A stretch of 64,000 bases of DNA from Vulcanimicrobiota bacterium (lineage in GTDB: Bacteria; Vulcanimicrobiota; Xenobia; Xenobiales; JADMJV01): contig JBFWNU010000001.1 of NCBI GenBank assembly GCA_050250895.1, positions 2,342,210 to 2,406,209 of the forward strand, written 5' to 3'. Position 1 is the stretch's first letter. Each line of letters begins with the position of its first letter. This document shows, piece by piece, positions 7,068 through 50,090 of the stretch. Below the pieces are notes generated by a model, which did no database searches, had not been told where the DNA came from, and was given only the letters and a program-made list of their open reading frames with translations. A program made the position numbers and the translations under genes.

Positions 7068-7180
7068 GCAAGAGGATTCGGTTTATCACCGGGTTTGACC
7101 TACGGCAAGCGTGTGCCAATGGCTAGGCGGCCGCAGGAGGAGGCTCCGAAAATAGGGAATCTTCAAGTGTCGGAGGACGT

Positions 7181-7984
7181 ATGAAGAAGCAGTTCGTCGC
7201 CTGTTCGCTGTTCTTGGCACTGTCGCTCTCAGCGGGAGCGCAAACGATGGGACCGTGCGGACCGTGCGGTCCAGGCGGGGGGTCGAGCCCTGGCTTCAAC
7301 CCCGGCGCCCCCATGTTGGGCCCCGGCCAGAGCGGTCCGGGCAGCGACCGGAATGCGGGCCCGCAAGCACGTTTTCGCAGCGACGATGATGTCTTCGACT
7401 ACATCCGTCAGAACTACGGCGGTAACGCCAATCAGGCCCGCCAGGACCCACGCGTCACCAGCTGGATGAAGGGCCTCGAGGGAGAAGCTCGTTACGTCTT
7501 TCAAGACCGGCTGGATCGAGCCCACGATTTCTCGGGCGACCCCACCCTGACCCGCATCACCGGCACCGCGACCAACGACTACTACTGTCACGATTTCGCC
7601 TGGCGCCAGGGTGACAAGTCGCCCCCGGCCGGCGGTCATATCAACCCCGACCCCATCCTGGCCGACCCGGCCCGGTATGGTTACGAAGTTGTCTCGGCGT
7701 CGAGTGCCCAGGCCGGTGACATCGTCGTGTATCATCAGAGCGACGGCGGCAAGGCCGACCACTCGGGCCTGGTGGTCCGGGTTCAAGACGGCAATACCTA
7801 TATGATCAGCAAGGATGTGGGCAACTCACTATTCCGTCATCAACTCGACAGCCCGCCGGGAAGTCCGAACTTCTTTCGCGGCGCCTACGGTTCCGAGGGG
7901 GTGACCATCCTGCGGCCGGGACCTTACGCTGTAAAACCGACCGCCGGTTCCGAGGCACCTCCGCCGGCTGCCTCAGGACCGTAA
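7181..7984 (+). CDS. Secreted protein with a Gly/Pro-rich linker and a CHAP/NlpC-P60-like putative cysteine peptidase domain
   Basis: Signal peptide MKKQFVACSLFLALSLSAGAQT. The RBS GGAGGACGT precedes the ATG. Cys in NDYYCHDFAW and His in GDIVVYHQSDGGKADHSGLVV are arranged like a papain-fold CHAP domain. Confidence 0.5.
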   Translation: MKKQFVACSLFLALSLSAGAQTMGPCGPCGPGGGSSPGFNPGAPMLGPGQSGPGSDRNAGPQARFRSDDDVFDYIRQNYGGNANQARQDPRVTSWMKGLEGEARYVFQDRLDRAHDFSGDPTLTRITGTATNDYYCHDFAWRQGDKSPPAGGHINPDPILADPARYGYEVVSASSAQAGDIVVYHQSDGGKADHSGLVVRVQDGNTYMISKDVGNSLFRHQLDSPPGSPNFFRGAYGSEGVTILRPGPYAVKPTAGSEAPPPAASGP

Positions 7985-8025
7985 GAGACCGCGCAAGCCG
8001 TTCGGGGATACCTGACCCGCCGCCT

Positions 8026-8640
8026 CTACAGTCGAGCCCTCAAGAACTCGAGCAGCTCTTCCAACTCGGGTGCGCAGCCCCGCCCAAGGTTCAGATTGGC
8101 GTCGGCCGTGACTCGCCGCAGGGTGGTGCCCCCGTCCAGTGCCTGACCGAGCACCAGATAGTCCGCCAATTGCAGGTCATCATCGAGCAGAACGACGGAG
8201 AAATGGGGAGCCAGGATCGTGCCCTTCAGCTTCTCGAGCAGCGTCTCCTCCGACGCTGTCTCCAGGTCCGCGACCTGTAACGGTGGGAACTTGGGGTAGC
8301 CGATGATTCGGTATTGTAGGCCTTCTTTGAGAGTGCCCGAATCCCCCGACACCGCACTGAACTCTTTGGCGAATTCCTCATCAGGCTCAAAGCCTGCCAT
8401 GATGGCCGAGCCTTGGCAGCAAAGAATGCCCGCCAATCTTGGCTTGGCCACAAGCATTTTGAAGTTCCCGCCAACCTCATCGTGATAGAGGTAGTAGGGA
8501 AGGAGCGAATAGGCTGCCGTGTAGCAAACCTGCTTGGAATCCGGACGGTCGGACTTCTTCTCTTTTTTGAAGAGCGAACTCAATGGTTCTCCGTGGCCTC
8601 CTTTCGTATCGACTCTCGCTTCAAAGCACCCGCGGCCCAA
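8026..8640 (-). CDS. Hypothetical protein (204-aa ORF). The true start may be an internal Met (MLVAKPRLAGILCC...).
   Basis: Long ORF in a lower-GC stretch with no recognisable motif. Confidence 0.4.
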   Translation of the reverse strand: MGRGCFEARVDTKGGHGEPLSSLFKKEKKSDRPDSKQVCYTAAYSLLPYYLYHDEVGGNFKMLVAKPRLAGILCCQGSAIMAGFEPDEEFAKEFSAVSGDSGTLKEGLQYRIIGYPKFPPLQVADLETASEETLLEKLKGTILAPHFSVVLLDDDLQLADYLVLGQALDGGTTLRRVTADANLNLGRGCAPELEELLEFLRARL

Positions 8641-8677
8641 CGAACCTAAAATAGGCGGCCAGCTTATTTTAGGTTCG
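8641..8677. promoter_or_regulatory. AT-rich perfect dyad CGAACCTAAAATA-N11-TATTTTAGGTTCG (13-bp arms) immediately upstream of the 8026..8640 gene. This is a candidate operator.
   Basis: Read directly. A second TTAAAATAAG motif lies about 8686. Confidence 0.4.
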
Positions 8678-8848
8678 GGCCAAACTTAAAATAAGCCTTG
8701 GTTAGAGCTTCATCTCGCCGTGGCGGGCAAACCTACCTACGGTCGCGGGTATCGAGTGGATCGCGCGGGCACGCTGGGCCACAGTCATCATTCGCTCGAG
8801 CGCCAGAACTAGACTGCCACGCGGCCACCAGCTCGTATGCAAGTCCCT

Positions 8849-9262
8849 CTAGTCTTTGATTTGATGGTGAGGCATCCATCGACCGAGCTCTTCCTCCAAC
8901 AATCGGCCGAGATAGTCTACTCCGCTGCGCACCTCTTTGTTGTTGCCGGAGGTGACCAATGGGAGAATCATGCGAAGCTCTGGAAAGCGATGGATGACAG
9001 ATTCGGGGTCTGCGGCCGCGAAATAGATTGCGACTCGCCGCGCGAGTTTGAAAAGCGTTTTGTACTCTTGACCTTGACGCTGTCGTCTTACCTGTCGGCG
9101 TTCCCTGGCCAGGTTTTTGCGATGACTACGGGATTCTAGGCTTCGACGTTTGGCTCCGGAGAGCGGACGTTCTGACTTCAGTGTTCTTCGCACCTCGTTG
9201 CCGCCCGGTGCGATGGGCCGAGTGATAGTCACCATTATATCCCAGCTCGCCGCCCCGAACAA
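8849..9262 (-). CDS. Hypothetical basic protein (137-aa ORF). The frame and strand are uncertain, because an overlapping +ORF 8837..9139 also exists.
   Basis: The C-terminal half (KTLFKLARRVAIYFAAADPESVIHRFPELRMILPLVTSGNNKEVRSGVDYLGRLLEEELGRW) looks protein-like. The N-terminal half is Arg-rich. Confidence 0.25.
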   Translation of the reverse strand: MFGAASWDIMVTITRPIAPGGNEVRRTLKSERPLSGAKRRSLESRSHRKNLARERRQVRRQRQGQEYKTLFKLARRVAIYFAAADPESVIHRFPELRMILPLVTSGNNKEVRSGVDYLGRLLEEELGRWMPHHQIKD

Positions 9263-9368
9263 TCGCTGCCCTGGCCTGACCAGACAGGGGACGAGCGAAG
9301 ATGAGGAGGCTCGCGTTGCCCGAGGAGATCTTCAGGGGGTGGTGGCGATCTCTCGGACCTGATCACCG

Positions 9369-9638
9369 ATGGAGAGTGGTTCTGCAGAACGTCTGTCCCT
9401 GCTGGTGGAGCCAGTGCCGCAACTGGGGCCCGCTGAAAAGCTTCGTATTGCCCTCAAGCTTGCTCAGGCGGGGGTCGAGATGAAGAGGCAGGCGCTCATT
9501 CGCCAGTATCCGAGCGAAACTCCGGAGCAGATCTCCGCGCGGATGCTGGAATGGCAATGTCGACGAGTCGAAGCGCCGTATGGTGATTGCCCGGGGACCT
9601 GGCTGGCGACTAGGACCAGGTCATTTGACTGTCTCTAG
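9369..9638 (+). CDS. Hypothetical small protein (89 aa). Its 3' third is duplicated as a degenerate copy at 10613-10715.
   Basis: The ORF reads ...QYPSETPEQISARMLEWQCRRVEAPYGDCPG. A paralogous, frameshifted copy (YPSETREQVP... / LEWQCRRVEAPCGDCPG) lies about 1.1 kb downstream. Confidence 0.3.
   Translation: MESGSAERLSLLVEPVPQLGPAEKLRIALKLAQAGVEMKRQALIRQYPSETPEQISARMLEWQCRRVEAPYGDCPGTWLATRTRSFDCL
9495..9605. repeat. Left copy of a roughly 105-bp imperfect direct repeat (about 85% identical to 10613-10715) flanking the HTH cassette
   Basis: Aligned by eye: CCAGTATCCGAGCGAAACTCCGGAGCAGATCTCC...CTGGAATGGCAATGTCGACGAGTCGAAGCGCCGTATGGTGATTGCCCGGGGACCTGG against GGTATCCGAGCGAAACCCGGGAGCAAGTCCCC...CTGGAATGGCAATGTCGGCGAGTCGAAGCGCCTTGTGGCGATTGTCCCGGCACCGGG. 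Confidence 0.7.
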
Positions 9639-10153
9639 CTCGCGGATGACGTCCCGGTATCGAGAAAGACAGGCTCTTCTCCGGGGAAGACCGCCTGCAC
9701 GCGTAGCTCTCCGCCTAGAGCGGCGATGTACCTCTGCAGGGTGGTGAGCTGGATGTCTCCCTTTTCCAATCTTGAGACACTTGACTGCTGTATCCCAAGC
9801 CGCTCGGCGAGCTGAACCTGTGTGAGGCCTCGCAGCTCTCGAAGGCGGCTGCGAAGTACGCCCATCGGCGGCCTGGTTGCTTTGCCCTCCGATAGAAGCT
9901 CGATGGCACGCGCAACAGCCTGTTCTAGCTTGGGATAGACTTCGTCGGAACCTTCCCCGTAGCCAGCTTGTCCCGTCGAGAGGCCAAAGCCCTTGTGCGG
10001 TCTCCACTCTACCGCGACAGAATGGCCGTCAAGCTCCAGGTCCAACCACCAGCGCCCGGCAGCATCGCGCGGACGGTCGAGGTATGACTTCAGTTCCGGA
10101 AGCTCTCTCCTCACTGCTCGTTCCAATTTCTCGATCGCGTTCATTCTGGCCAC
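9635..10153 (-). CDS. XRE-family helix-turn-helix protein with an uncharacterised 90-aa N-terminal domain
   Basis: C-terminal HTH LRELRGLTQVQLAERLGIQQSSVSRLEKGD. The N-terminal domain (WWLDLELDGHSVAVEWRPHKGFG...) matches nothing I recognise. It overlaps the upstream gene by 13 nt, so it is probably in an operon. Confidence 0.6.
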   Translation of the reverse strand: MARMNAIEKLERAVRRELPELKSYLDRPRDAAGRWWLDLELDGHSVAVEWRPHKGFGLSTGQAGYGEGSDEVYPKLEQAVARAIELLSEGKATRPPMGVLRSRLRELRGLTQVQLAERLGIQQSSVSRLEKGDIQLTTLQRYIAALGGELRVQAVFPGEEPVFLDTGTSSAS

Positions 10154-10512
10154 ACTCCCTTTCCGTCAGCTCCGTTCTTTCTAAAGAGAATCTCACCAGA
10201 TTCCGGGGGCGTCGCAACCCGGCGTGTTTCGATGGCGCCGTTGGGCCCCAGGAACGTGTTGTGCTGTCGACTGCGGAAGCGTTGAACTCCGTCAAAGCCG
10301 TCGACATTCCTGAGGCTGTCCTTCTGTGGTGGATACATCCGTCCGTCAGTCTGCCAGTTTTCTGGGTCGTAAACAATCCCGGTGAACTCATCCTCAACCT
10401 GGTTCAGTGTCTGCTCAATTTGCAGCAAAGCCTCCTCGGCGTTCCCCGCTGCGGACAGGGCGGCCAGCCTTCGGAAGAATTCCTGCAGGCGTTCGGCGCG
10501 AGAAGATTCCAA
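10141..10512 (-). CDS. Hypothetical 123-aa protein, first gene of the two-gene cassette
   Basis: ORF MESSRAERLQEFFRRLAALSAAGNAEEALLQIEQTLNQVEDEFTGIVYDPENWQTDGRMYPPQKDSL... with no recognisable motif. Confidence 0.45.
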   Translation of the reverse strand: MESSRAERLQEFFRRLAALSAAGNAEEALLQIEQTLNQVEDEFTGIVYDPENWQTDGRMYPPQKDSLRNVDGFDGVQRFRSRQHNTFLGPNGAIETRRVATPPESGEILFRKNGADGKGVWPE

Positions 10513-10612
10513 GAAAGCCTCCAGTAAGTTCCAGCGCTACAGAAAATATAGCTCATAATGCATACCTGGGCAAGATGCGCCAGCGTGCATATTCCAGGAA
10601 GCCTCGATCGAG

Positions 10613-10715
10613 CGCCATCTGGTATCCGAGCGAAACCCGGGAGCAAGTCCCCATGCGCCCTGGAATGGCAATGTCGGCGAGTCGAAGCGCCTTGTGGCGA
10701 TTGTCCCGGCACCGG
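10613..10715. repeat. Right copy of the roughly 105-bp direct repeat; a degenerate pseudo-copy of the 3' end of ORF 9369..9638
   Basis: See the left copy. The coding frame is disrupted between the YPSET and LEWQCRRVEAP segments. Confidence 0.7.
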
Positions 10716-10720
10716 GTGGT

Positions 10721-11041
10721 ATGATGACAATCATGGCCGAGCACGACGACACCTTATGGGTCATCACGATAGACCCCGCAATTGAGCACTACATCGAAAG
10801 AGTCAATGCTGGGGAGGCTCCACTCCACCAATCGTTCGTCGAGGCTCTCCATCGAGCCCTGGAGCACCATCTTAAAGATCCCGAGGTCCCGAGAAGGCTG
10901 CTGAGTATGCCTACATCGGTCCTCTTCCTGCGGGAGATATTCCGGGAAACAATGCCCGACCTGGCCGTCGTGACCTGGACCGACTTGGGACCGAAACAGC
11001 GCGTGGGTTGTGTTCTGATGCTGGAAGTCACAGAGATTTGA
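10721..11041 (+). CDS. Hypothetical protein (about 106 aa from the internal ATG; the ORF track gives 10694)
   Basis: MMTIMAEHDDTLWVITIDPAIEHYIERVNAGEAPLHQSFVEALHRALEHHLKDPEVPRRLL... has protein-like composition but no recognisable motif. Confidence 0.35.
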   Translation: MMTIMAEHDDTLWVITIDPAIEHYIERVNAGEAPLHQSFVEALHRALEHHLKDPEVPRRLLSMPTSVLFLREIFRETMPDLAVVTWTDLGPKQRVGCVLMLEVTEI

Positions 11042-11088
11042 CCGGGTAGTGGGCGTGTGATACCGGCCAAGACTGGGATCAGGCCGCT

Positions 11089-12981
11089 TCACTCCAGCAG
11101 GCGACGGAACTCGGCGGCCCGGTCGTGGAAGCGGCGTTGCCATAGTTCGAGGCAGACCAGGCCCCAGAGCTTGCGGCCAAAGCGGGGCTCGGCGTCGAGG
11201 CCCGCCAGCACCTGGTGATGGTCGACATAGTCGCGCTCCCGGCTGAGCAGGTCGCGCACGAAGTCGCGGGCGGGGCCCTGGAACCACTCGGCCACCGGGG
11301 TGGGAAAGCCCATTTTGTCCTGGCGCTGGGCGATCTCTTTGGGCACGTAGCCGCCCATGGCGTTGCGAAAGACGTGCTTGAGGGTGCCGTCGCGAAACTT
11401 GACGCTGGCGGGCATGGTGGCGGCCAGTTCGACCATGGGGTGGTCGAGCAGCGGCACCCGCGACTCGAGGCCGTGGGCCATGCTGACCCGGTCCTCGACG
11501 TGCAGCAGGGCCGGCAACAGCGTCTTGAAGTCGAAGTTGGTCATCAGGTCGAAATACGAATCGCGCCGCACGTTGGGCCCGTAGAAGATCGACGAGAACA
11601 CCTCGAAGGGCGAGTATTCGGGCAGCTGGTCCCAGCGGATCTCGTCGCGCAGGGTCTGGGCCCGGTCGACCAGGCGAAAATAGCGCCGGTCCATCGACTC
11701 GAACAGGCCCTCTGACCAGAAGCTCTGCAGCAGCGGCTTGTAGTTGCGCAGGGCGGTCAGGTTGGGGATGATCGACTCGTAGGTGACCACGAAGTTGCCG
11801 TTGTGCATGGTGCCGTCGATGGCGGCTTTGATGCACTGCTCGAAATAGGCGATCAGATAGCGGGTGTAGCCTCCGAAGAGCTCGTCGCCGCCCTGGCCTC
11901 CGAGCACCACCTTGCGATGGCGGGCGGCCTCGCGGCTGACCACGAACTGCGAGAACGAGCCGGGGCCGGCCACCGGATAGTCGAGATGGTAGATGACCTT
12001 CTCGATGTCGGCCAGAAAGTCGTCGACGGTGATGTCGACCGAAATCAGCTCGAAGTGGTGGCGGTCTGACACCAGTTTGGCATAGGCACTCTCGTCGTAC
12101 TCGGGGCCCAGGTCAAAGCGCCCGTGAAACCCCACGAAGGGGCGGCTGCGCTCGGCCGCCAGGCTGGCCACCAGACTCGAGTCGAGGCCTCCGGAAAGGT
12201 AGGCTCCCAGGGGCACGTCGGCCCGCAAGTGCAGCTCGATCGACTCGTGGACCAGATCATTTAAGCGGCGCTCGAAGTAGAGCTCGGTGTGCTCGAGGTC
12301 GACCCCGTAATAGACCTCCCAGTAGCGGCGCGTGCGGGTGCCCTCGGCGTCGCGCCAGAGCAAGTGGCCGGCCTCGAGCTCGCGCACCTGACGAAAGAGG
12401 GTCTTGCCGGCCAGACAGAACTGAAAGACCAGATAGTCCATCAGGCCTTCGTTGTCGGTGGCCACCTCGGGCAGAAAGGGCAGCAGCGCCTTGGGCTCGG
12501 AGGCGAAATAGAAGACTCCCCCCTGCTCGGTGTAGTAGAACGGCTTGATCCCGAAGCGGTCGCGGGCGCAAAACAGGCGCTGGTTGGCCTCGTCCCAGAG
12601 GGCGAAGCTGAACATGCCGCGCAGCTTGTCGAGGACCGCCTCGCCCCAGCGGCGATAGCCCACCAGGATGACCTCGGTGTCGCAGGTGGTGCGAAAGTTC
12701 TCTTCGCCAAGCTCCTGGCGCAGCTCGAGATAGTTGTAGATCTCGCCGTTGTAGGTCAGGTAGTTGCCGTGGCCGTCGCTCATGGGCTGGGCCCCGCCCT
12801 CGAGGTCGATAATCGACAGGCGGCGGTGGGCCAGACCCAGGCGGCCGCTGGGGTGAGTCCAGACTCCGTGGCCGTCGGGGCCGCGGTGGGCCAGCAGATC
12901 GTTCATGACGGTCAGGCCACGTTCGAGGTGGGGGAGGGGGCCGGGACTCACGATTCCGGCAATGCCGCACATAGAGAACAA
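11089..12981 (-). CDS. Asparagine synthase (glutamine-hydrolysing) family amidotransferase (AsnB-like)
   Basis: N-terminal Ntn nucleophile MCGIAGIV. The synthetase domain carries the PP-loop YLSGGLDSS. Length is 630 aa. It is divergent from the carbamoyltransferase operon. Confidence 0.85.
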   Translation of the reverse strand: MFSMCGIAGIVSPGPLPHLERGLTVMNDLLAHRGPDGHGVWTHPSGRLGLAHRRLSIIDLEGGAQPMSDGHGNYLTYNGEIYNYLELRQELGEENFRTTCDTEVILVGYRRWGEAVLDKLRGMFSFALWDEANQRLFCARDRFGIKPFYYTEQGGVFYFASEPKALLPFLPEVATDNEGLMDYLVFQFCLAGKTLFRQVRELEAGHLLWRDAEGTRTRRYWEVYYGVDLEHTELYFERRLNDLVHESIELHLRADVPLGAYLSGGLDSSLVASLAAERSRPFVGFHGRFDLGPEYDESAYAKLVSDRHHFELISVDITVDDFLADIEKVIYHLDYPVAGPGSFSQFVVSREAARHRKVVLGGQGGDELFGGYTRYLIAYFEQCIKAAIDGTMHNGNFVVTYESIIPNLTALRNYKPLLQSFWSEGLFESMDRRYFRLVDRAQTLRDEIRWDQLPEYSPFEVFSSIFYGPNVRRDSYFDLMTNFDFKTLLPALLHVEDRVSMAHGLESRVPLLDHPMVELAATMPASVKFRDGTLKHVFRNAMGGYVPKEIAQRQDKMGFPTPVAEWFQGPARDFVRDLLSRERDYVDHHQVLAGLDAEPRFGRKLWGLVCLELWQRRFHDRAAEFRRLLE

Positions 12982-13050
12982 CTACGCGTCGGGCGCCAAA
13001 CGACCTTCAGGCGGCGGAGGAACTCGAACGGTCGACTCAAAGATAACAGG

Positions 13051-13452
13051 GTGAAAGAAGACCTCGCCGCCAATCGCCGCGCCGGGGTGATCCAGGCCCT
13101 GGTGGCGGGCCTGGTGGGTGGCTTGTCTTTTCACTTCTGGCGGGTCGAGGTGGCCTATGTCGCTTTCGGCTTTTGCGGCCTGTTTCTGGTGGCCGGGCTG
13201 TTCTCTCCTGGAGGGCTCTATCCGGCCATTCGCAAGGTCTTTGACGGCTTCGGTCGGGTCGTGGGCACGGTGCTGACCTGGGTCTTGCTGGTGCCTACCT
13301 ACTGGCTGTTTTTTACTCCCTTTCACCTGCTCTTTCGCCGCGGCAGCCGCGATTCGATGACTCGCCGGCTCGATAAAGAGGCAGCCTCGTATTGGATCGA
13401 GCGCAGCGGTCAGGTGCCCGAGCCCGAGAGCTACGAGCGGCAGTTTCGATGA
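13051..13452 (+). CDS. SxtJ-like small membrane protein (partner protein of carbamoyltransferases)
   Basis: These are the last 133 codons of ORF-track entry 12289..13452, whose 5' part is antisense to asnB. GTG at 13051 (residue 255) begins VKEDLAANRRAGVIQALVAGLVGGLSFHFW...LTWVLLVPTYWLFFTPFHLLFRRGSRD, which has two hydrophobic segments. It overlaps the carbamoyltransferase ATG by 4 nt. Confidence 0.5.
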   Translation: MKEDLAANRRAGVIQALVAGLVGGLSFHFWRVEVAYVAFGFCGLFLVAGLFSPGGLYPAIRKVFDGFGRVVGTVLTWVLLVPTYWLFFTPFHLLFRRGSRDSMTRRLDKEAASYWIERSGQVPEPESYERQFR

Positions 13453-15269
13453 ACATTCTCGGCATCAGCGCCTTTTACCACGACTCGGCCGCCTGCCTGG
13501 TCGAGTCGGGCCGCATCGTGGCCGCCGCTCAGGAGGAGCGCTTCACCCGCAAGAAAGCCGACGCCGACTTTCCTTACGAGTCGGTGCGCTACTGCCTGAG
13601 CCAGATGCAGGGCGAGCTGGCGGCGGTCGCCTTTTATGATAAGCCGTTGACCAAGTTCCATCGCATCCTCGAGACCTATCTTTCGGTGGCTCCCCGGGGT
13701 CTCAAGCCTTATCTGCAGGCCGTGCCCCTGTGGTTGCGCGAGAAGCTGTGGATTCATCCTCAGATCCAGCAGGCGCTCGAGCAATGCGGGGTCAAGGCTC
13801 CCGAGCAGTTCTACTTTCCCGAGCACCACGAATCGCACGCCGCCAGCGCCTTTTATCCCAGCCCGTTTCAAGAGGCGGCCATCGTCACCCTCGACGGAGT
13901 GGGCGAGTGGACCACCACCAGCATCGCCGTGGGCGAGGGCAACCAGGTTCGCATGGTGCGCGAGCTGCACTTTCCTCATTCGCTGGGAATGTTGTATTCG
14001 GCTTTCACCTACTATACCGGCTTCAAGGTGAATTCGGGCGAGTATAAACTGATGGGACTGGCTCCCTACGGCCAGCCCACCTATGTTGACAAGATCAAGG
14101 ACCACCTCATCGACATCAAGGCCGACGGCTCGTATCGGCTGAATATGGACTACTTCGCGTATCTTGACGACCTGGTGATGGTCAATGAGCGCTTTCACCA
14201 GCTTTTCGGAGGCGAACCGCGTCAGGCCGAGTCGCCTTTGACCCGGCGCGAGATGGACCTGGCCGCCTCGATCCAGGTGGTGACCGAAGAGGTGGTGCTA
14301 AAGATAGCCGCCCATGCCCGCGAGCTGACCGGCAAAGCCAACCTTTGTCTGGCCGGCGGGGTGGCCCTCAACTGCGTGGCCAACGGTCGTCTGCTGCGGG
14401 AGGGGATTTTCGACGACCTTTGGATTCAGCCGGCCGCGGGCGATGCCGGCGGAGCGCTGGGAGCGGCCATGTTGGTCTGGCACCAGATTGAAGGCAAGCC
14501 GCGCCAGGCCGGCCCCACCGATCAGATGCAGGGAGCCTATCTCGGGCCTGAATATAGCCCTGAGGAGATCCGCGCCTTTCTGGACGAGCACGGCTACGTC
14601 TATGAAGAACTGGCGCCCCAGGAGTGGGCCAGCCGGTTGGCCGAGATCCTCGACGGCGAGAACGTCATCGGCTTGCTCCAGGGGCGCATGGAGTTTGGCC
14701 CGCGGGCGCTGGGCAATCGCTCGATTATCGGTGATGCCCGCTCGCCCAAGATGCAGGCGGCCATGAACCTCAAGATCAAGTACCGCGAGAGCTTTCGCCC
14801 GTTCGCTCCCAGTTGTCTGGAGGAGTGCATCGGCGAGTATTTCGAACTCGACCGGCCCTCGCCTTACATGCTGCTGGTGGCCCAGGTCCAGCCAGAGCGT
14901 TGCGTGCCGCCCCAGGGCGACGAGCGCGAGCTGGAGGTGCGCGAGTGGGTCAACCGCCCGCGCTCGGATATTCCGGCCATTACCCACGTCGATTTTTCGG
15001 CCCGGGTTCAGTCGGTCAATCAGACCACCAATCCCAGCTATTACGCTCTGCTCAAGGCTTTTCAAGCGCGCACCGGTTTTGGCATCATCACCAACACCAG
15101 TTTCAACGTGCGCGGAGAGCCCATCGTGTGCACGCCTGAGGACGCCTATCGCTGTTTTATGCGCACCGAGATGGACTATCTGGTGCTGGGGCCGTTTCTG
15201 TTGGCCAAGCCCGCCCAGCCCGAGTGGAAAGAAACCAAAAAGTGGCAAGAAGACTTCGTGCTGGATTGA
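13449..15269 (+). CDS. Carbamoyltransferase (NodU/CmcH/SxtI family)
   Basis: Starts at the internal Met of the ORF (MNILGISAFYHDSAACLVESGRIVAAAQEERFTRKK), the characteristic N-terminus of this family. About 606 aa. Confidence 0.85.
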   Translation: MNILGISAFYHDSAACLVESGRIVAAAQEERFTRKKADADFPYESVRYCLSQMQGELAAVAFYDKPLTKFHRILETYLSVAPRGLKPYLQAVPLWLREKLWIHPQIQQALEQCGVKAPEQFYFPEHHESHAASAFYPSPFQEAAIVTLDGVGEWTTTSIAVGEGNQVRMVRELHFPHSLGMLYSAFTYYTGFKVNSGEYKLMGLAPYGQPTYVDKIKDHLIDIKADGSYRLNMDYFAYLDDLVMVNERFHQLFGGEPRQAESPLTRREMDLAASIQVVTEEVVLKIAAHARELTGKANLCLAGGVALNCVANGRLLREGIFDDLWIQPAAGDAGGALGAAMLVWHQIEGKPRQAGPTDQMQGAYLGPEYSPEEIRAFLDEHGYVYEELAPQEWASRLAEILDGENVIGLLQGRMEFGPRALGNRSIIGDARSPKMQAAMNLKIKYRESFRPFAPSCLEECIGEYFELDRPSPYMLLVAQVQPERCVPPQGDERELEVREWVNRPRSDIPAITHVDFSARVQSVNQTTNPSYYALLKAFQARTGFGIITNTSFNVRGEPIVCTPEDAYRCFMRTEMDYLVLGPFLLAKPAQPEWKETKKWQEDFVLD

Positions 15270-15288
15270 CAGAATAGAGCCAGAGACC

Positions 15289-15450
15289 ATGAAACTAAGC
15301 TATCTTGGAAAGCTGCTCAAAGAGCTCTATCTGTTCGCCAAGAAAGAGAAGGCCTACTGGATCGTGCCGCTGGTGCTGATGCTGCTGCTCTTCTCGGTGC
15401 TGGTGGTCACGGGGCAAACGGTGGCTCCCTTTATCTACACCCTGTTTTGA
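15289..15450 (+). CDS. SxtK-like small membrane protein (DUF5989-like; carbamoyltransferase-associated)
   Basis: Internal ATG of ORF 15079..15450 gives MKLSYLGKLLKELYLFAKKEKAYWIVPLVLMLLLFSVLVVTGQTVAPFIYTLF (53 aa, one TM). It starts 20 nt after the carbamoyltransferase stop. Confidence 0.55.
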   Translation: MKLSYLGKLLKELYLFAKKEKAYWIVPLVLMLLLFSVLVVTGQTVAPFIYTLF

Positions 15451-16700
15451 CCCCCGATTACGTGCTGGGGTGCCTGGGCCGCTATTGGCCCACCGGCGGG
15501 CGGCTGATTCTCGAGCTTCCCCTGGTCCAGCATACCCGCGGAGGTCATCAGCTGCGCCTGGTGTCGCTGCCGGATTGGCACCCCGGCGAGTTGTTGGTGC
15601 CGGCCTGGGCCGCTCCCGAGGGTGACTGGGAGCGGGTGGACTGGCTGGGGGCGGCCATGTGGTTTTTGCACGGTCAGGCCGAGCGCGATCTCGAGCGGGT
15701 GCACGGGCCGGTCCACTCCTACAGTCTGCGCCTGGATCTCGACTCGCGCATGTGGGATAAAGCCTGGGTCAACCGCATCGCGCTCTTTTTGCGAGCCTGG
15801 GTGGCCCATCGTCTGGGCCAGAGCGAGGCCGAGTTGTTCGGGCCCAGGCCCAAGGCCGAATTTATGCTCACCCACGATGTGGACGCGGTGGCCAAGACCG
15901 TGGCCATCCGCGGCAAGCAGACTGCCTTCCATCTGTTCAACGGGCTCCGTCAACTGGCCCGCGGTCGCCTGGGAGGAGCGGTGGCGGCCTGGCGGCGCGC
16001 GGTGCAGTTCTCGGTCTCGGCCGAAGATTATTGGTGTTTCGAGTGGCTGATGGCGCTCGAGGCCGCTCATGGCGTGACCAGCCACTACAACTTCTATGGC
16101 GGACCCGGCGGATGGGGGCGGGATCCCGTGCGCCTGCTGCTCGACCCGGCCTACAACGTGGACCACCCGCGCCTGCGCGAGGTGCTGGCCCGACTGGTGA
16201 CCGCCGGCCACGCGGTGGGTTTGCACCAGTCTTTTCACGCCTGGCAAGACGCCGCTTCCATGGCGCGCGAGAAGGCTCGCCTCGAGGCGGCCCTGGGCCG
16301 GCCGGTCAAGGAGTGCCGCCAACACTGGTTGCGTTTCTCCTGGCAGCACACATGGCAGGCTCAGCAAGAGGCTGGATTGACCCTTGACAGCACTCTGGGC
16401 TTCAACGACCGGCCCGGATTTCGCACGGCCGGGGCCCTGCGCTACCATCCCTGGGACCCCGAAACCGGCCGGCCCATGGGCCTGGAAGTGGTGCCGATGG
16501 TCTTGATGGATTCGCATCTCTACGATTATCTGGGTCTTGACGACGAGGCCGAGCGACGCCGCCACATCGACCACTGGCTCGACGAGGTGATGGCGGTGGG
16601 CGGCGTGGCCAGCCTGACCTGGCACCAGCGGGTGGTCAGCCAGGACTATGGCTGGGGACCGGGCTACGAGCACGTGCTGGCCCGAGTGGCCCCCCGCTGA
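15447..16700 (+). CDS. Polysaccharide deacetylase-like protein (ArnD/NodB-type fold suggested)
   Basis: An HDVD motif (LTHDVDAVAKT) resembles the D-x-D metal site of NodB/ArnD deacetylases. Length is 417 aa. The start overlaps the previous gene's stop. Confidence 0.45.
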   Translation: MTPDYVLGCLGRYWPTGGRLILELPLVQHTRGGHQLRLVSLPDWHPGELLVPAWAAPEGDWERVDWLGAAMWFLHGQAERDLERVHGPVHSYSLRLDLDSRMWDKAWVNRIALFLRAWVAHRLGQSEAELFGPRPKAEFMLTHDVDAVAKTVAIRGKQTAFHLFNGLRQLARGRLGGAVAAWRRAVQFSVSAEDYWCFEWLMALEAAHGVTSHYNFYGGPGGWGRDPVRLLLDPAYNVDHPRLREVLARLVTAGHAVGLHQSFHAWQDAASMAREKARLEAALGRPVKECRQHWLRFSWQHTWQAQQEAGLTLDSTLGFNDRPGFRTAGALRYHPWDPETGRPMGLEVVPMVLMDSHLYDYLGLDDEAERRRHIDHWLDEVMAVGGVASLTWHQRVVSQDYGWGPGYEHVLARVAPR

Positions 16701-16737
16701 GAGAAGGTCACCGGGTTTGGGCGCCGAAAACAGCGGT

Positions 16738-18234
16738 ATGACAAGGGTTCTGCGAGCGACCGACCTGTCCGAGCACATGCACGAGGATTGGGCCGAGGCC
16801 AAACGTCCCATTCGGGTGCTATTGATCCAGCCTCCTACCTCGGGTTGTGTGCGCTCCCTTTTGCCGCAGGTCGAGCAAGACGGCGAGGGTATCGGCTTCA
16901 AGCCTCCCCTGGGGTTGCTGTATGTGGCCAGCATGACGGCCGCCTCGACCCCCCACGAGGTGAAGGTTATCGACGCTATCGGCCAGCGCAAGAGCTTCGA
17001 TGACCTGGTGGCCGAGGCCAGGGCGTTTGAGCCCGACCTCATCGGCATTTCGGCCTGGACCGACTGGTGGTATCCGGCCTATCACACCGGCGAGTTGCTC
17101 AAGGAGGCCCTGCCCAAGGCCCACCTTTGCTACGGCGGGCCCCACGTCAGCATCTATGCCCAGGCTACCCTGGACGTTCCGTTTGTCGACAGCGTGATCG
17201 TGGGTGACGGCGAGGTTCCTTTTATGTGCCTGGCCAACATGCTGGCTAACGACAAGCTCGACAACCGGCTGCCCGGACTGCATCTAAAGCAGCACGGGGT
17301 GAAAGAGTGCCAGCAGTTCTTCATTCACGACGACCTCGACAACCTGCCTCTACCCGACCGTCGCATGTTGCCGCTCGAGCCTTACAGCTCGGTGCTGGGC
17401 AAAGGTCGCCTTTTGACTACGATGGTGACCAGCCGCGGTTGCCCCCACAAATGCACCTTCTGCAAGCTCAACTTCCAGAAGACCCTGTGTCGCTCGGCCG
17501 ACAACGTGCTGCGCGAGTTCGAAGACATCCACTCGCTGGGCATCAAGGAGGTCGAGCTCTACGACGACACCTTCACCTGGGCGCGTCAACGGGTGCTCGA
17601 TATCTGCCAGGGCTTGATCGACCGCCAGCTCGGCCTCGAGTGGGCCGTGCGTGACAGGGTTAGCAACGCCCGCGTCGATCTGCTCGACCGCATGTACGCG
17701 GCCGGCTGCCGCCGCGTTCACTACGGTATCGAATCGGGAGTCGACCGGGTGCTCGAGAAGATGCGCAAGAAGACCACCGTGCGCCTGGCCCGGCGGGCCG
17801 TGCAGATCGCCAAGGACACTGGCCTCACCGTGCTGACCTACTTCATGTTCGGCAACCTCGACGAGACCCTCGACGACATGCAGCGCACCATCGACTTTGC
17901 CCTCGAGCTCGACGCCGACTTCTGCGAGTTTTCCATCACCATCCCCTATGCCGGCACCGAGATGTACGAAGAGGCCCTCGAGACCGGCCTCATCAAAGAA
18001 GACTACTGGGCCGAATACGCCCGCAAGCCCGTGCCCGACTTCATGCCGCCCAAGCTCATCGAAACGGCGGCCAGCCTGGAGCAGCTCATCGAGATTCGCA
18101 ACCGGGCCGTGCGCAGCTTCTATTTCCGCCCTAAGTACATCATCAATCAGGCCCGCAAGGTCACCAACCCCGTCGAGTTCTTGCGCAAGGCCAAAATGGG
18201 CGGCAAACTCTTCAATTCGGTCTATGCCAGGTAA
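16738..18234 (+). CDS. Cobalamin-binding (class B) radical SAM enzyme
   Basis: N-terminal B12-binding-like region (RVLLIQPPTSG...). The radical-SAM cluster motif is SRGCPHKCTFC. The start is taken at the internal ATG (MTRVLRA); the ORF track begins at 16648 and overlaps the upstream gene. Confidence 0.8.
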   Translation: MTRVLRATDLSEHMHEDWAEAKRPIRVLLIQPPTSGCVRSLLPQVEQDGEGIGFKPPLGLLYVASMTAASTPHEVKVIDAIGQRKSFDDLVAEARAFEPDLIGISAWTDWWYPAYHTGELLKEALPKAHLCYGGPHVSIYAQATLDVPFVDSVIVGDGEVPFMCLANMLANDKLDNRLPGLHLKQHGVKECQQFFIHDDLDNLPLPDRRMLPLEPYSSVLGKGRLLTTMVTSRGCPHKCTFCKLNFQKTLCRSADNVLREFEDIHSLGIKEVELYDDTFTWARQRVLDICQGLIDRQLGLEWAVRDRVSNARVDLLDRMYAAGCRRVHYGIESGVDRVLEKMRKKTTVRLARRAVQIAKDTGLTVLTYFMFGNLDETLDDMQRTIDFALELDADFCEFSITIPYAGTEMYEEALETGLIKEDYWAEYARKPVPDFMPPKLIETAASLEQLIEIRNRAVRSFYFRPKYIINQARKVTNPVEFLRKAKMGGKLFNSVYAR

Positions 18235-18240
18235 CGCTTA

Positions 18241-19452
18241 GTGATCCCACGTTTGCGGCCTCCCTTTGGCCTGCTCGAGCTGGCCCTGGCGGCCGTCCCT
18301 CGCCCCGGATACGACGAAGCTCGTTTCGAGCAGGCGTTTGCCAATAAGTTTGGCTTTGAGCACGGGCTGTTCTTTCCTTACGGGCGCAGTGCGCTCTACG
18401 CGCTACTCAAGGTTCGCGGCCAGGACCGCCAGGTGGTCATGCCCGCTTATACTTGCTCGGTGGTGGCCCATGCGGTGGCTTTGTCGGGCAACAAGCCGGT
18501 CTTTGTCGACTGCGGCCAAGAGCACTTCAACATGCCGCCCGCCGCCCTCGAGCCAGCGCTTGACGAGCAAACCTCGATGGTCATCCTGACGCCCATCTTC
18601 GGCTATCCCATCGAACGCCGCGATTGCGAGGCGGTCATCAAGAAGAAGTCGCCCGACGCCTTCGTGCTTTACGACCTGGCCTATGCCTTCGGGGTTCACG
18701 ACAAGCGAGGTCCTCAGGCCCAGGAGGCCGACGCGGCCCTCTTCGGCCTGGGCATCGGCAAGCAGCTCTCGACCCTTTTCGGAGGCATCTTGCTGCTGCG
18801 AGACCCCGAGCTCTATCAGGCGGTCAAGGAATTTCGCGACCAGACCTTCAAGAAGCCCGGCCGGCTGGCCGGGCTCAACAAATTCAGCTATGGCAAGGCC
18901 GTCTACTTTGCTTTTCGTGAGCCGTTCTTGAGCCTGGTCGACCTGCTCGAGCGCAAGACCCCGCTGCTCAATCGCTTCACCCGCCACTATTACGGCGTCG
19001 ACGGCATCGCCATGCCGGCCGATTTTCAGGTCAGGCCGACGGCTCTGCAAGCTCGGCTGGGATTGTCGCAGCTCGAGCGCTACGACCAGATCGAGACCCA
19101 GCGCTGGGCCATCGGCCAACGCTACGAACTCAAGCTGGCTCAGGCGGGCTTCAAGGTTTTCGAGGGCCAGGAGAGCCAGACTTATTCGCATTTTCCCCTG
19201 GCAGTGGCCGAGCGGGACAGGGTCATCGCTGCCATGCTCGACAAAGGCGTGGGCCTGGGCAAGCTGATCGACTACAGCTGCCCTTGCCTGCCGGGCTATG
19301 ACTACTCGCCCGACGCTCATCCCCACTCCTACTGGTTCTCGCAGCATCTCGTCAATTTGCCCTGCTGGCCCGGCATGACGGTCGCCCAGGTCGACCAAGT
19401 GATCGAGGCGCTCGGCGCCTGCCGCGACCAGTCGCCCAAAGATTTCCTGTGA
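18241..19452 (+). CDS. DegT/DnrJ/EryC1/StrS-family PLP-dependent sugar aminotransferase
   Basis: Family-typical N-terminus (FEQAFANKFGFEHGLFFPYGRSALYALLKV...VVMPAYTC) and a length of 403 aa. Confidence 0.8.
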   Translation: MIPRLRPPFGLLELALAAVPRPGYDEARFEQAFANKFGFEHGLFFPYGRSALYALLKVRGQDRQVVMPAYTCSVVAHAVALSGNKPVFVDCGQEHFNMPPAALEPALDEQTSMVILTPIFGYPIERRDCEAVIKKKSPDAFVLYDLAYAFGVHDKRGPQAQEADAALFGLGIGKQLSTLFGGILLLRDPELYQAVKEFRDQTFKKPGRLAGLNKFSYGKAVYFAFREPFLSLVDLLERKTPLLNRFTRHYYGVDGIAMPADFQVRPTALQARLGLSQLERYDQIETQRWAIGQRYELKLAQAGFKVFEGQESQTYSHFPLAVAERDRVIAAMLDKGVGLGKLIDYSCPCLPGYDYSPDAHPHSYWFSQHLVNLPCWPGMTVAQVDQVIEALGACRDQSPKDFL

Positions 19453-21257
19453 ACCGCTGGCTGGTGCTGGTGGGTCTGGCCTTTTGTGCCTACGCCGTGG
19501 TGGCCCTGGGCGACTTCAAGGTGTTGCTGGCCACTACCCACGGCGACGACGGGCCGGTCGTCTACGCCGACTATGCGGCTCATCCCGATCGCTACCAAAA
19601 GGACATCCTGGCCATCTATGCGCCGGTGCAACTGCGGGCCACGGCCCAGAACTGGCTGCCGGTGCGGCTGCGACCCATCCTCTCGCCCGAGCGCTTCGCC
19701 TGGCTGATGGCCTTTCTCCAGATGGCCTTGCTCGGGCCGGCCGCCTGGCTGCTGGCCTATAATCTCAGCAGCGACCGCTGGGTGGCCTGGGTCTATCCGC
19801 TCTGGTTGGCCTCGACCTTTGCCTGGGAGTGGAACCTGGCCAACTACGACACCAGCCTCCATCTGCCTTATCCCGCCCAATTGGGCTTTTCCCTAACGTT
19901 GCTGGCCTTCGGTCTGGCCCTGGCCGAGAAGCCCTGGCCCGCTCTAGCAGTGCTGGCGGTGGTGGCCCTCTTTCACCCGGTGTTGACCCTGCTCGGCGGC
20001 CTGGTGCTGGGCCTGACCTGGTGGCGCCGCCAACAGCTGGCGGTCGCGCCGATGCTGGGATTGGCGGCAGCGCTGGCCCTGGCGGTGGGGCCGGCGCTCT
20101 TGCTGGCGTCCTCGGTCGAACAACTGGGACGCCCCGAGATGCTCGAAGGCATGCGGGTCAATCAGCACGTCTCGCCGTGGAACTTTCCCCAGGTGTTCTG
20201 GCCGCGTTGCTGGACCCTGCTGGGCTTTGTCGTCCTCTATGCTCTGGCCTGGAAGGACCAGAGCGAACCCGGCCGCGCTCTGGGCACGGCCACCCTGGTG
20301 GTGGTGGTTCTCTTTGCCGGCTCGCATCTAGTCGGCGGCTGGTTGGGCATTCCCTTCCTGCTAAAGCTGATCGGCTTGCGCTCGACGCAGCTGATGGTCC
20401 TGTTCGGATTGCCCGTGGTGCTGGCCTATTTGGGCGGGCGCCTGGACGGCTCGACTCGCGAACGCTGGGCAGCCCTGACGCTGCTGCTCTTACTCGGCCT
20501 CTTTCGCCGGGGCTTTTTCTGGGGACCGCTGCTGGTGCTGGTGGCCGAGCGCCTCGGCTGGAAAGGGCTGGCCCGGGGCGTGGCGGTGGGCTGGAGCAGC
20601 CTGGTGATCATCCTGGTCTTAGGCGGCCTGCTGGTCGACCCCATCCTGTTTCGAGGCGCCCTGGTGTTGATGCCCGGCCTGGTACCCACCCGGCCGGTGG
20701 TGTTGCTCGTATTGCTGGTGGCGCTGGCCTGGTTGGTGGCCAGCCTTCCCCGCCACACTCGCCGTCTGGCGGTGGTGTTGGTGGGAGTGCTGGCTCTCTA
20801 CAGCGCCGTCGAGTTGGGCCAGAAGTCGCATTCGCCCAAGGCGGTAGCCCTCTATCAGGCTCAGACCTGGAGTGCGGCCAATACGCCCGAGACGGCCAGG
20901 TTCGTCGAGTTCGCCGGCACCTGGCGCAACCTGGCTCATCGCTCTACCGTCAACCCGCGGGCCTCGGTCTGGTATCTCTACTCGGGCGACGCTCGCCTGC
21001 GGGTCTTCGACGACGCCTATCTGCGCTTCTATGGTCTGGAAGATGCCTTTCGGCGCGACACCCAATGGTCGCTGTATCTCAAGCAGATGCGAGCCTTCTA
21101 TACTCTCGACGAGGCAGGGGTGAAGGCCCTGGTCGACCAGTTCGGGGGCGACTATCTGGTTCACGACAAGACCGTCGGCCCGCCGCGCTTGAGCTTTCCG
21201 GTGGCCTACGAGAACGACGCCTACGTCATTTATCGGGTGGGTAACCCAGGCTCGTGA
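19449..21257 (+). CDS. Polytopic membrane protein, putative GT-C-fold glycosyltransferase (ArnT/PMT-like architecture: about 12 TM helices plus a roughly 150-aa C-terminal soluble domain)
   Basis: Many hydrophobic helices. An acidic HGDDGP motif sits in the first extracytoplasmic loop after TM1, where GT-C enzymes carry their DD/DE motif. The start overlaps the aminotransferase stop. Confidence 0.45.
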   Translation: MNRWLVLVGLAFCAYAVVALGDFKVLLATTHGDDGPVVYADYAAHPDRYQKDILAIYAPVQLRATAQNWLPVRLRPILSPERFAWLMAFLQMALLGPAAWLLAYNLSSDRWVAWVYPLWLASTFAWEWNLANYDTSLHLPYPAQLGFSLTLLAFGLALAEKPWPALAVLAVVALFHPVLTLLGGLVLGLTWWRRQQLAVAPMLGLAAALALAVGPALLLASSVEQLGRPEMLEGMRVNQHVSPWNFPQVFWPRCWTLLGFVVLYALAWKDQSEPGRALGTATLVVVVLFAGSHLVGGWLGIPFLLKLIGLRSTQLMVLFGLPVVLAYLGGRLDGSTRERWAALTLLLLLGLFRRGFFWGPLLVLVAERLGWKGLARGVAVGWSSLVIILVLGGLLVDPILFRGALVLMPGLVPTRPVVLLVLLVALAWLVASLPRHTRRLAVVLVGVLALYSAVELGQKSHSPKAVALYQAQTWSAANTPETARFVEFAGTWRNLAHRSTVNPRASVWYLYSGDARLRVFDDAYLRFYGLEDAFRRDTQWSLYLKQMRAFYTLDEAGVKALVDQFGGDYLVHDKTVGPPRLSFPVAYENDAYVIYRVGNPGS

Positions 21258-23154: not shown

Positions 23155-23283
23155 GTGGGTGCTGGCTGGGGTTTAGCGCGGAGATCACGCCGAGGACGCG
23201 AGGTCGCGGAGAGGGCGGCTCGAGGCGCAAGGGGACGCTCTTGCGATTTTTATGGCTTGCTTGAGCTCGGCAGAACCGCCGGC

Positions 23284-23540
23284 CAGGTGGTGCCGGATTC
23301 GGCACGTGGTAGCGCCGTACTCGGCCGAGGTTGCTCTTCCGTGCGGAAGTCGGCTTGCCCGCGACCGTGGTCGAGCCACCCAGGCTGGTCGGCGGCGGTA
23401 CGGCACCAGGTGGTGCCGGATTCGGCACGTGGTAGCGCCGTACTCGGCCGAGGATGCTCTTCCGTGCGGAAGTCGGCTTGCCCGCGACCGTGGTCGAGCC
23501 ACCCAGGCTGCCGGCGGCGGTACGGCACCAGGTGGTCGCC
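23284..23540. repeat. Tandem repeat of about 123 bp with about 2.1 copies. Each unit contains the hairpin GTGCCGgattCGGCAC.
   Basis: Read directly. The unit starts CAGGTGGTGCCGGATTCGGCACGTGGTAGCGCCGTACTCGGCCGAGG. It is related to motifs at 1037-1064. Confidence 0.75.
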
Positions 23541-49779: not shown

Positions 49780-49798
49780 ATCTGAGAAGGAGGCCGAC

Positions 49799-50017: not shown

Positions 50018-50090
50018 TGGGTCGATTTTTTCGTGGAACGGGCGCTAAACCGGGGTTTTTAGGGCTTAATTGGTTGGGAGGATAGCAAAA

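Follow-up and report, generated by a model that had tools for sequence, protein, structure and literature searches.

A densely packed gene cluster of Vulcanimicrobiota as a candidate variant of a cross-phylum surface-glycan cassette

Vulcanimicrobiota, formerly Eremiobacterota or WPS-2, are a barely cultured phylum. We analysed a 64-kb stretch of a Vulcanimicrobiota genome (contig JBFWNU010000001.1; G+C ~63%), hereafter the window, and describe a cluster of putative sugar-tailoring genes within it. Gene identities were taken from the listing of open reading frames (ORFs) and from Pfam and NCBIfam scans of the window, and all genes named in a preliminary description of this DNA were found in place. 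Seven densely packed genes on the plus strand are bordered by a divergent AsnB-type amidotransferase gene on one side, and by a convergent SGNH hydrolase gene and an aldose epimerase gene on the other (Table 1). The remainder of the window is housekeeping (rpsB, pyrH, cdsA, dxr, rseP, miaB and the dcw cell-wall cluster), so that the cluster forms an isolated island. The window has neither tRNA genes nor matches to riboswitches or other Rfam families, and promoter and terminator scans yielded no useful signal above background.

Table 1. Genes of the cluster and its immediate flanks, in window coordinates (lengths in amino acids, aa).
Feature	Position	Strand	Basis of assignment
AsnB amidotransferase	11089-12972	-	Pfam Asn_synthase and GATase_7
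SxtJ-like small membrane protein, 133 aa	13051-13452	+	Synteny, remote PF19588 homologs
Carbamoyltransferase, 606 aa	13449-15269	+	Pfam Carbam_trans_N and Carbam_trans_C
DUF5989 (SxtK-type) single-pass membrane protein, 53 aa	15289-15450	+	Pfam PF19451
Predicted CE4/NodB-fold N-deacylase, unclassified family, ArnD/VimE-like	15447 or 15462 to 16700	+	No Pfam match
B12-binding radical SAM enzyme, 485 aa	16777-18234 (alternative start 16648)	+	Pfam B12-binding and Radical_SAM
DegT/DnrJ/EryC1-family sugar aminotransferase, 403 aa	18241-19452	+	Pfam PF01041
Predicted GT-C-fold membrane glycosyltransferase, unclassified family, 602 aa	19449-21257	+	Predicted fold
Membrane-anchored SGNH/GDSL hydrolase, 344 aa	21226-22260	-	Pfam Lipase_GDSL_2, 34.7 bits
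Aldose 1-epimerase-family protein, 271 aa	22339-23154	+	Pfam Aldose_epim, 81.7 bits

The seven genes had been taken for a translationally coupled operon. Their packing is tight, but strict coupling is certain at two junctions only, each with a 4-nt overlap of stop and start codons: between the SxtJ-like and carbamoyltransferase genes (ATGA) and between the DegT and GT-C genes (GTGA). The other junctions are gaps or depend on the choice of start codon. The carbamoyltransferase gene is followed by DUF5989 after 19 nt, and the radical SAM (S-adenosylmethionine) gene by DegT after 6 nt. The DUF5989 gene overlaps the deacylase gene by 4 nt if a TTG start is used and otherwise precedes it by 11 nt; deacylase and radical SAM genes either overlap by 53 nt or lie 76 nt apart. 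The GT-C and SGNH genes converge with a 32-nt overlap.

Two unclassified families and the tailoring enzymes

What is the large membrane protein at the end of the operon? It had no match in Pfam, NCBIfam or PDB sequences, and PDB searches with this protein and with the deacylase, as single sequences and as profiles, gave nothing meaningful. A word-indexed homology search returned just 2 relatives; an exhaustive HMMER search returned 207 representatives among 1.84 billion proteins, and a metagenome scan with a narrow alignment of the family gave 19 loci, mostly short. The AlphaFold2 model, based on a 52-sequence alignment, scores a pLDDT of 95.3 and a pTM of 0.93 and depicts ~13 transmembrane helices with a C-terminal soluble domain of ~140 aa. 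Foldseek matched it at probability 1.0 to DPY19, ArnT (TM-score 0.45/0.49) and STT3. The top structural matches also include PMT, AglB and PglB, and AftD, AftA and ArnT score equally. The model thus has the polytopic fold with a conserved transmembrane core that defines the GT-C superfamily, as the preliminary description had anticipated. A transporter was considered and rejected, since MFS, MATE and POT folds reached probabilities of at most 0.2 and TM-scores of ~0.1.

Catalytic acidic residues of GT-C enzymes lie in the loop that follows the first transmembrane helix. In the present family, D33 and D52 are kept in at least 90% of 52 members; among the 10 closest members, D22, D33 and D34 are kept in at least 90% and D52 is invariant. 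These aspartates sit between the first transmembrane helix (residues 2-20) and the next one of the model, so that the first extracytoplasmic loop does carry conserved acidic residues. His240 is invariant in the family. Judged by its modelled fold, the protein is a GT-C-fold glycosyltransferase of an unclassified family. It does not belong to the ArnT/PMT_2 sequence family: hhalign of the family profile against E. coli ArnT gave a probability of 0.3 (E. coli ArnD and ArnT were taken from locus L110 for all profile comparisons).

The deacylase is 417 aa long if read from the TTG at 15447, or 412 aa from the GTG at 15462. Its family comprises more than 1,000 matches at ~50% identity across phyla, and its sole NCBIfam match is the VimE deacetylase model (E 5.5e-20; 71.4 bits against a cutoff of 440). 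The deformed (beta/alpha) barrel of the CE4/NodB superfamily was found in its predicted structure. D139, D141, H255, H288 and H388 show no variation among 20 members, and at the level of sequence the stretches 'HDVDA' and 'GLHQSFH' parallel 'IDVDT' and 'GLHAWDH' of E. coli ArnD; the second His of the HxxxH motif varies within the family. Relative to ArnD, the protein carries an extra N-terminal region of ~130 aa. Neither a transmembrane segment nor a signal peptide was found in it, and it is therefore predicted to act in the cytoplasm, like ArnD and VimE. By sequence it belongs to neither of these two orthologous families, and the family profile gives no significant alignment with E. coli ArnD. 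We regard the protein as a predicted CE4/NodB-fold N-deacylase, ArnD/VimE-like, of an unclassified family.

The remaining enzymes are better charted. The true start of AsnB is the Met-Cys at 12972, which places the glutaminase nucleophile, Cys2, at the N-terminus. The protein scores 496 bits with TIGR01536 and 439 bits with TIGR03108 (eps_aminotran_1), under the latter's cutoff of 817, and is by its sequence a WbpS-like, glutamine-dependent amidotransferase. The carbamoyltransferase matches Carbam_trans_N (E 1e-100) and Carbam_trans_C (E 1e-70) and aligns over its full length with NovN, GdmN and TobZ in the PDB (E 1e-77 to 1e-88), as expected of an enzyme of the NodU/TobZ/NovN type. The DUF5989 protein scores 59.7 bits with PF19451 (cutoff 27). 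The SxtJ-like protein has no direct Pfam match and does not reach the PF19588 model; its label derives from synteny and from the remote homologs P0282 and P0284, which carry PF19588 SxtJ (relatedness E 1e-4 to 7e-4). The same order of SxtJ-like, carbamoyltransferase and DUF5989 genes is found in L105 and L035.

DegT has its best PDB matches in perosamine synthetase, QdtB and ArnB, and the lysine of its 'GIGKQ' motif aligns with the catalytic lysine that binds pyridoxal phosphate (PLP). All NCBIfam equivalog models score it far under their cutoffs. The radical SAM enzyme (Pfam B12-binding, 59 bits; Radical_SAM, 67 bits) appears from its sequence to be of class B, with an N-terminal B12-binding domain and a CxxxCxxC core, 'CPHKCTFC'. 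Its top NCBIfam models are HpnJ (166 bits), BchE (143 bits) and ApyD, all far under cutoff, and its closest solved relative in the PDB is the dehydratase AprD4 (E 7e-25). C-methylation, which the preliminary description had put forward, is with these closest matches just one option, and a role as diol-dehydratase or oxidase, providing DegT with a keto sugar, would be equally compatible. Cys2 of AsnB, the radical SAM motif, the PLP lysine of DegT and the full-length carbamoyltransferase suggest that the enzymes are catalytically competent.

On the far flank, the SGNH hydrolase has an N-terminal hydrophobic segment and a GDS block in its translation, and its position is kept in a relative at ~90% identity (L107); its membership in the pathway is uncertain. 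That of the aldose 1-epimerase, which is syntenic in close relatives only, is doubtful.

A cassette in many phyla and its variant in the window

Is this set of genes peculiar to one genome? We fetched 80 deacylase-encoding loci from species-representative genomes and clustered their ORFs with those of the window (78 loci in total). AsnB lies directly upstream of the deacylase, on the same strand, in 57/78 loci, and window AsnB falls into one protein cluster with these proteins. DegT and a GT2 glycosyltransferase are likewise each present in 57/78; the top NCBIfam models of the latter (ArnC, PgfS, Dol-P-hexose transferase, PpgS) are of the polyprenyl-phosphate glycosyltransferase type. A soluble protein of ~526 aa (Ulvan_lyase_N-like in precomputed Pfam annotation) occurs in 58/78. 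Less frequent are two families of SAM-dependent methyltransferases (34/78 and 29/78), a formyltransferase (25/78), UDP-GlcNAc 2-epimerase (22/78), WbpB/WbpD (21/78), Wzx (18/78) and an LPG_synthase_TM 'flippase-like' protein (15/78).

The hidden Markov model (HMM) of the GT-C family matches 23/78 deacylase loci, and 18/44 among loci with complete 10-kb flanks. Since the family is so rare, its linkage to the deacylase is not a matter of chance. A 650-aa polytopic protein of the cassette is a full-length homolog of the window protein (hhalign probability 100, E 1e-48). Loci that bear the GT-C span Proteobacteria, Planctomycetota, Cyanobacteria, Negativicutes, Synergistota, Bdellovibrionota and Pelagibacteraceae. 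The canonical order, seen in Achromobacter denitrificans (L020) and in Selenomonadales (L026), is GT2, AsnB, deacylase, (methyltransferase), ~526-aa protein, DegT, flippase-like protein, (methyltransferase/formyltransferase/radical SAM) and GT-C. Polyprenyl-phosphate GT2, flippase-like protein and GT-C are present together in L020, L026 and L050.

The surroundings of these loci are those of surface glycans: Wbp-pathway genes, UDP-GlcNAc 2-epimerase, Wzx, Wzm/Wzt and also Wzz. One of them, L056, is the wbm O-antigen locus of Bordetella bronchiseptica M2020-2, a novel serotype reported in 2025 (PMC12243275). Its positions 6919-18309 encode GT2, AsnB, the CE4 deacylase, a methyltransferase, the ~526-aa protein, DegT, a formyltransferase, LPG_synthase_TM and a GT-C homolog, and this full cassette would imply that a modified aminosugar is added to the M2020-2 O antigen in the periplasm. 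The closest GT-C homolog outside Eremiobacterota (38% identity) is encoded right after a GT2, within an O-antigen-type cluster with Wzm/Wzt. Another (37%) stands in the order GT2, AsnB, ~526-aa protein, B12-radical SAM, flippase-like protein, GT-C, DegT, FemAB-like protein and sulfotransferase. To judge from these sequences, the core of AsnB, deacylase, DegT and GT-C is a cross-phylum module, uncharacterised and widespread in O-antigen-type loci.

The ~526-aa protein is the commonest neighbour of the deacylase and usually lies directly downstream of it, for example at L056:12044-13663 and L003:12019-13578. Our own scan gave no Pfam match for it; the precomputed Ulvan_lyase_N annotation is found in L083 and L108. 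Were its fold like that of a lyase or an epimerase, this would agree with a uronic-acid substrate. In two Planctomycetota loci (L008:1124-7224, L017:3009-9530), three consecutive large polytopic proteins (615-709 aa) are encoded divergently from the deacylase; only the nearest is a GT-C homolog (HMM ~400 bits), and hhalign finds no relationship of the other two to it.

How does the window relate to this cassette? Independent assemblies of this species (L001, L002) keep its gene order, as does a relative whose proteins are 87-97% identical (L104, L107). AsnB has the opposite orientation to that in the canonical cassette, and the trio of SxtJ-like, carbamoyltransferase and DUF5989 genes lies exactly between AsnB and the deacylase. 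The one other locus in which the trio is linked to the cassette, L035 of Acidobacteria, has it after AsnB, deacylase, a second CE4 and a methyltransferase, all on the same strand. This second CE4 (L035:9308-10303), right after the ArnD/VimE-like one, is a canonical deacetylase with DVDV and NHTLSHP motifs. In two further contexts of SxtJ-like homologs (L105, L111) the trio stands alone or near unrelated genes. Homologs or orthologs of the radical SAM enzyme occur within the cassette at four other genome loci only (L011, L026, L064, L075), plus L108. The orthologs of L064 and L075 are 61-64% identical to it, and these two loci, which have the closest radical SAM orthologs, also have the closest DegT (46-50% identity against ~35% elsewhere). 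This sharing hints that the two may act as a functional pair.

A related Eremiobacterota metagenome-assembled genome (MAG; GCA_020431725.1, L104), with an AsnB 96% identical to ours, carries Mu-like transposase genes (rve, Mu-transpos_C) and AAA genes beyond AsnB, at L104:387-2575. This flank differs from the left flank of the window, and the cluster may lie at a variable or mobile boundary. From these comparisons of gene content, we consider it most likely that the window cluster is a reduced and re-tooled variant of a modular surface-glycan cassette. The preliminary description had not recognised the combination as a described pathway; none was found by us either, but the core is a widespread cassette and not unique to this genome.

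Relation to known systems and a proposed pathway

The cluster had been likened to the Arn system (PmrHFIJKLM), which adds L-Ara4N to lipid A. Both have an ArnB-type DegT, a GT-C and a CE4 enzyme of the ArnD fold, in the window a predicted cytoplasmic one whose sequence parallels the DVD and GLHxxxH motifs. Cassettes of relatives in other phyla, though not the window, further resemble the Arn system in having a formyltransferase, a flippase-like protein and an ArnC-like GT2, which reinforces the Arn-like logic. The window itself lacks equivalents of ArnA, ArnC and ArnE/F and is not an Arn system as a whole. Its CE4 and GT-C folds uphold the comparison with ArnD and ArnT, but neither protein has sequence similarity to, or belongs to the family of, its E. 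coli counterpart. The window adds AsnB, the carbamoyltransferase trio and the B12-radical SAM enzyme.

A second relative is the Wbp/Vim pathway for the linking sugar of Porphyromonas gingivalis (WbpS, VimE, VimA), in which WbpS, of AsnB type, produces a uronamide and VimE, a CE4 enzyme, removes the 2-N-acetyl group of a diacetamido-uronate (PMC7468200). Like this pathway, the window combines an AsnB of the eps_aminotran_1 kind with a VimE-homologous CE4 enzyme and DegT; among related loci, 21/78 have Wbp genes and one has a FemAB-like gene. Unlike it, the window lacks a VimA/FemAB-type acyltransferase, VimF, WbpA, WbpB and WbpD, a GT-C replaces the Leloir glycosyltransferase, and the scores are far under the VimE (71 vs 440 bits) and WbpS (439 vs 817 bits) cutoffs. 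It cannot be counted as a member of this pathway.

In the three-component systems (GtrABC; PPPRS/MATE/GT136 of Citrobacter), a GT-C, a synthase for the lipid-linked donor and a flippase form an established route of periplasmic glycan modification (PMC11127046). The window shares with them a GT-C with a C-terminal soluble domain, and related cassettes share a polyprenyl-phosphate-type GT2 and a flippase-like protein beside the GT-C. In the window, however, only the GT-C is present, GT2 and flippase being absent from the 64 kb by tblastn, so that it does not make up such a system. Its GT-C family also has no Pfam model, and the donor would not be glucose or a pentofuranose but a heavily tailored aminosugar. 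Missing components, scores far under cutoffs and the lack of similarity to ArnD and ArnT place the cluster outside all three systems.

The loci of B. bronchiseptica M2020-2 (wbm) and A. denitrificans NBRC 15125 share with the window the deacylase (43-48% identity), AsnB directly upstream of it, DegT and a full-length GT-C homolog. They differ in that they add GT2, a SAM methyltransferase, the ~526-aa protein, a formyltransferase and a flippase-like protein, and lack the carbamoyltransferase trio and the radical SAM enzyme. With the SxtI-SxtJ-SxtK module of saxitoxin biosynthesis, the window shares a carbamoyltransferase flanked by SxtJ-like and DUF5989 (SxtK) small membrane proteins. It differs from it in having no other sxt genes, an SxtJ-like protein that misses the Pfam SxtJ model, and a context of glycan tailoring. 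The literature describes SxtJ and SxtK as uncharacterised (PMC2885083). A literature search found no description of the deacylase family, the GT-C family, DUF5989 or the present gene combination.

At a probability of roughly 0.55, we favour the reading that the cluster tailors a carboxyl-bearing N-acyl-aminosugar, linked to a lipid or a nucleotide, and that the GT-C protein transfers the product to an acceptor in the envelope. What the analysis shows are the protein families and folds, the catalytic motifs, the packing of the operon and the linkage across phyla; the substrate, step order, lipid carrier and acceptor of the following pathway we infer. It would start from an N-acyl-aminosugar with a carboxyl group, most likely an N-acetyl-hexosaminuronic acid, carried on a nucleotide or on polyprenyl phosphate. 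The AsnB-type enzyme would amidate the carboxyl to a uronamide, and the cytoplasmic ArnD/VimE-like CE4 enzyme would remove the N-acyl group. DegT may supply a further amino group, with the B12-radical SAM enzyme providing either the keto intermediate, by a logic like that of AprD4 or BtrN, or a methyl group. The TobZ/NodU-type enzyme would add a carbamoyl group, probably held at the membrane by the SxtJ-like and DUF5989 proteins. The finished sugar on polyprenyl phosphate would be flipped across the membrane and transferred by the 602-aa GT-C, outside the cytoplasmic membrane, to an envelope polysaccharide, lipid or protein, where the membrane-anchored SGNH hydrolase may act extracellularly on the same polymer.

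By analogy, each of these steps finds support in the Wbp/Vim and three-component precedents and in Bordetella, whose O chains contain uronamides and are capped by a triamino-galacturonamide derivative, with three AsnB-type genes in the wbm locus (PMC2615507). The polyprenyl-linked donor gains indirect support from the ArnC-like GT2 and flippase-like genes that adjoin GT-C homologs in other phyla.

Several observations weigh against this pathway. Polyprenyl-phosphate GT2, flippase-like protein and formyltransferase are missing from the window (tblastn and Pfam of its ORFs), and no dehydrogenase for a uronic acid or keto sugar is found among its annotated ORFs; the pathway as drawn therefore needs genes outside the 64 kb. 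The ~526-aa protein, the most frequent neighbour of the deacylase elsewhere, is also absent: tblastn with the GT2, formyltransferase, flippase-like and ~526-aa proteins and methyltransferases of the cassette had no hit in the window. The exact set of eight genes is co-conserved in close relatives only, with sub-modules alone recurring across phyla, which bears out only in part the expectation that the genes travel together. Only 2/78 loci have the carbamoyltransferase trio next to the cassette genes, and the trio also stands alone. Neither the deacylase nor the GT-C is a sequence-level member of the ArnD, VimE or ArnT families; both families are known from sequence, fold and linkage, and the fold matches are distant (TM-scores of 0.3-0.5) and indicate neither donor nor acceptor. 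No result points to the 4-aminosugar proposed in the preliminary description, and the window has no enzyme that would yield a keto- or uronic-acid substrate.

Could the cytoplasmic enzymes instead constitute a Wbp/Vim-like nucleotide-sugar pathway serving Leloir glycosyltransferases elsewhere, with the GT-C acting separately, like an oligosaccharyltransferase or polymerase, on a finished lipid-linked glycan? We hold this to be unlikely, for where the GT-C family occurs in other phyla, the same cassette also encodes a flippase-like protein and an ArnC-like GT2, the signature of a single-sugar lipid-linked donor, and in the window the DegT stop codon overlaps the GT-C start. A protein acceptor (S-layer, pilin or another surface protein), which would make the cluster a protein-glycosylation system, is suggested by PMT, STT3, AglB, PglB and DPY19 among the top structural matches and by the modified uronamide of the Wbp/Vim pathway, which links proteins to the lipopolysaccharide A-LPS (PMC7468200). 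The fold scores, however, do not separate GT-C classes, with AftD, AftA and ArnT scoring equally. The relatives reside in O-antigen-type loci with Wzz, Wzx or Wzm/Wzt, and the WWDYG and DE motifs of oligosaccharyltransferases and PMT were not seen among the conserved GT-C columns. A protein acceptor is on this evidence distinctly unlikely.

We give still less credence to a cluster that makes a soluble secondary metabolite, resembling an aminoglycoside or a carbamoylated alkaloid, and in which the membrane protein would be incidental. Saxitoxin biosynthesis is where the trio was originally reported, AprD4 of apramycin biosynthesis is the top PDB match of the radical SAM enzyme, and DegT and TobZ-type carbamoyltransferases are common in aminoglycoside clusters. 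Yet no polyketide synthase, nonribosomal peptide synthetase, cyclitol-synthase, amidinotransferase or exporter gene is among the annotated ORFs of the window, the membrane protein resembles a GT-C and not a transporter, and the AsnB-deacylase-DegT core is found in surface-polysaccharide loci of other phyla. A saxitoxin or aminoglycoside cluster proper was rejected, as no core biosynthetic gene of either is present. That the genes are merely adjacent, by chance juxtaposition in a variable region, would fit the housekeeping genes around them and the differing DNA, with Mu-like transposase genes, beyond AsnB in the related MAG. Overlapping starts and stops on a single strand, sub-modules that recur in more than 10 phyla and a gene order kept in relatives of 87-97% identity make it highly improbable.

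A bolder form of the favoured pathway, tentative and on balance rather unlikely, is that the product is a sugar undescribed in any glycan: a carbamoylated amino-uronamide, tailored by the radical SAM enzyme, borne on polyprenyl and transferred by a new GT-C family. SxtJ and DUF5989 would then form a tether that enables a TobZ-type carbamoyltransferase to act on a lipid-linked sugar, a first function for both orphan families, and in the B12-radical SAM/DegT pair a radical dehydration or oxidation would precede the transamination that introduces an amine.

The principle of such a pathway is not new and extends Arn and three-component logic; the cassette and the two orphan families merit characterisation. 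Fold and cross-phylum linkage place two families that lack Pfam models in one modular cassette for the putative tailoring of surface glycans, and a membrane-proximal role is suggested for the orphan SxtJ and SxtK proteins. Carriers include pathogens and abundant environmental bacteria (B. bronchiseptica M2020-2, A. denitrificans, Pelagibacteraceae, Planctomycetota and cyanobacteria), for which the cassette offers a testable hypothesis on antigenic variation. It also informs the envelope chemistry of Vulcanimicrobiota.

Further features of the window

A second ORF of 602 aa, at 39014-40822, was considered and rejected as kin of the GT-C protein; it encodes an RseP-type M50 site-2 protease with PDZ domains in a cdsA-dxr-rseP arrangement. 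The dcw-type cluster at 47983-60768 is complete, with an FtsI-type penicillin-binding protein, Mur ligases, MraY, MurD, FtsW, MurG, MurC and FtsQ. A short-chain dehydrogenase/reductase (SDR) epimerase/dehydratase is encoded at 62687-63622 and a CHAP-domain protein at 7181-7984, and at 1515-5256 a Ser/Thr protein kinase gene (747 aa) converges with that of a BTAD/Trans_reg_C (SARP-like) regulator. Between the aldose epimerase gene and miaB lies an intergenic tandem repeat (23283-23536; 123 nt x 2.1, 97% identity). Further intergenic repeats with long units are found at 1130-1279 (62 nt x 2.4), 59414-59662 (117 nt x 2.1) and 59719-59846 (44 nt x 2.7).

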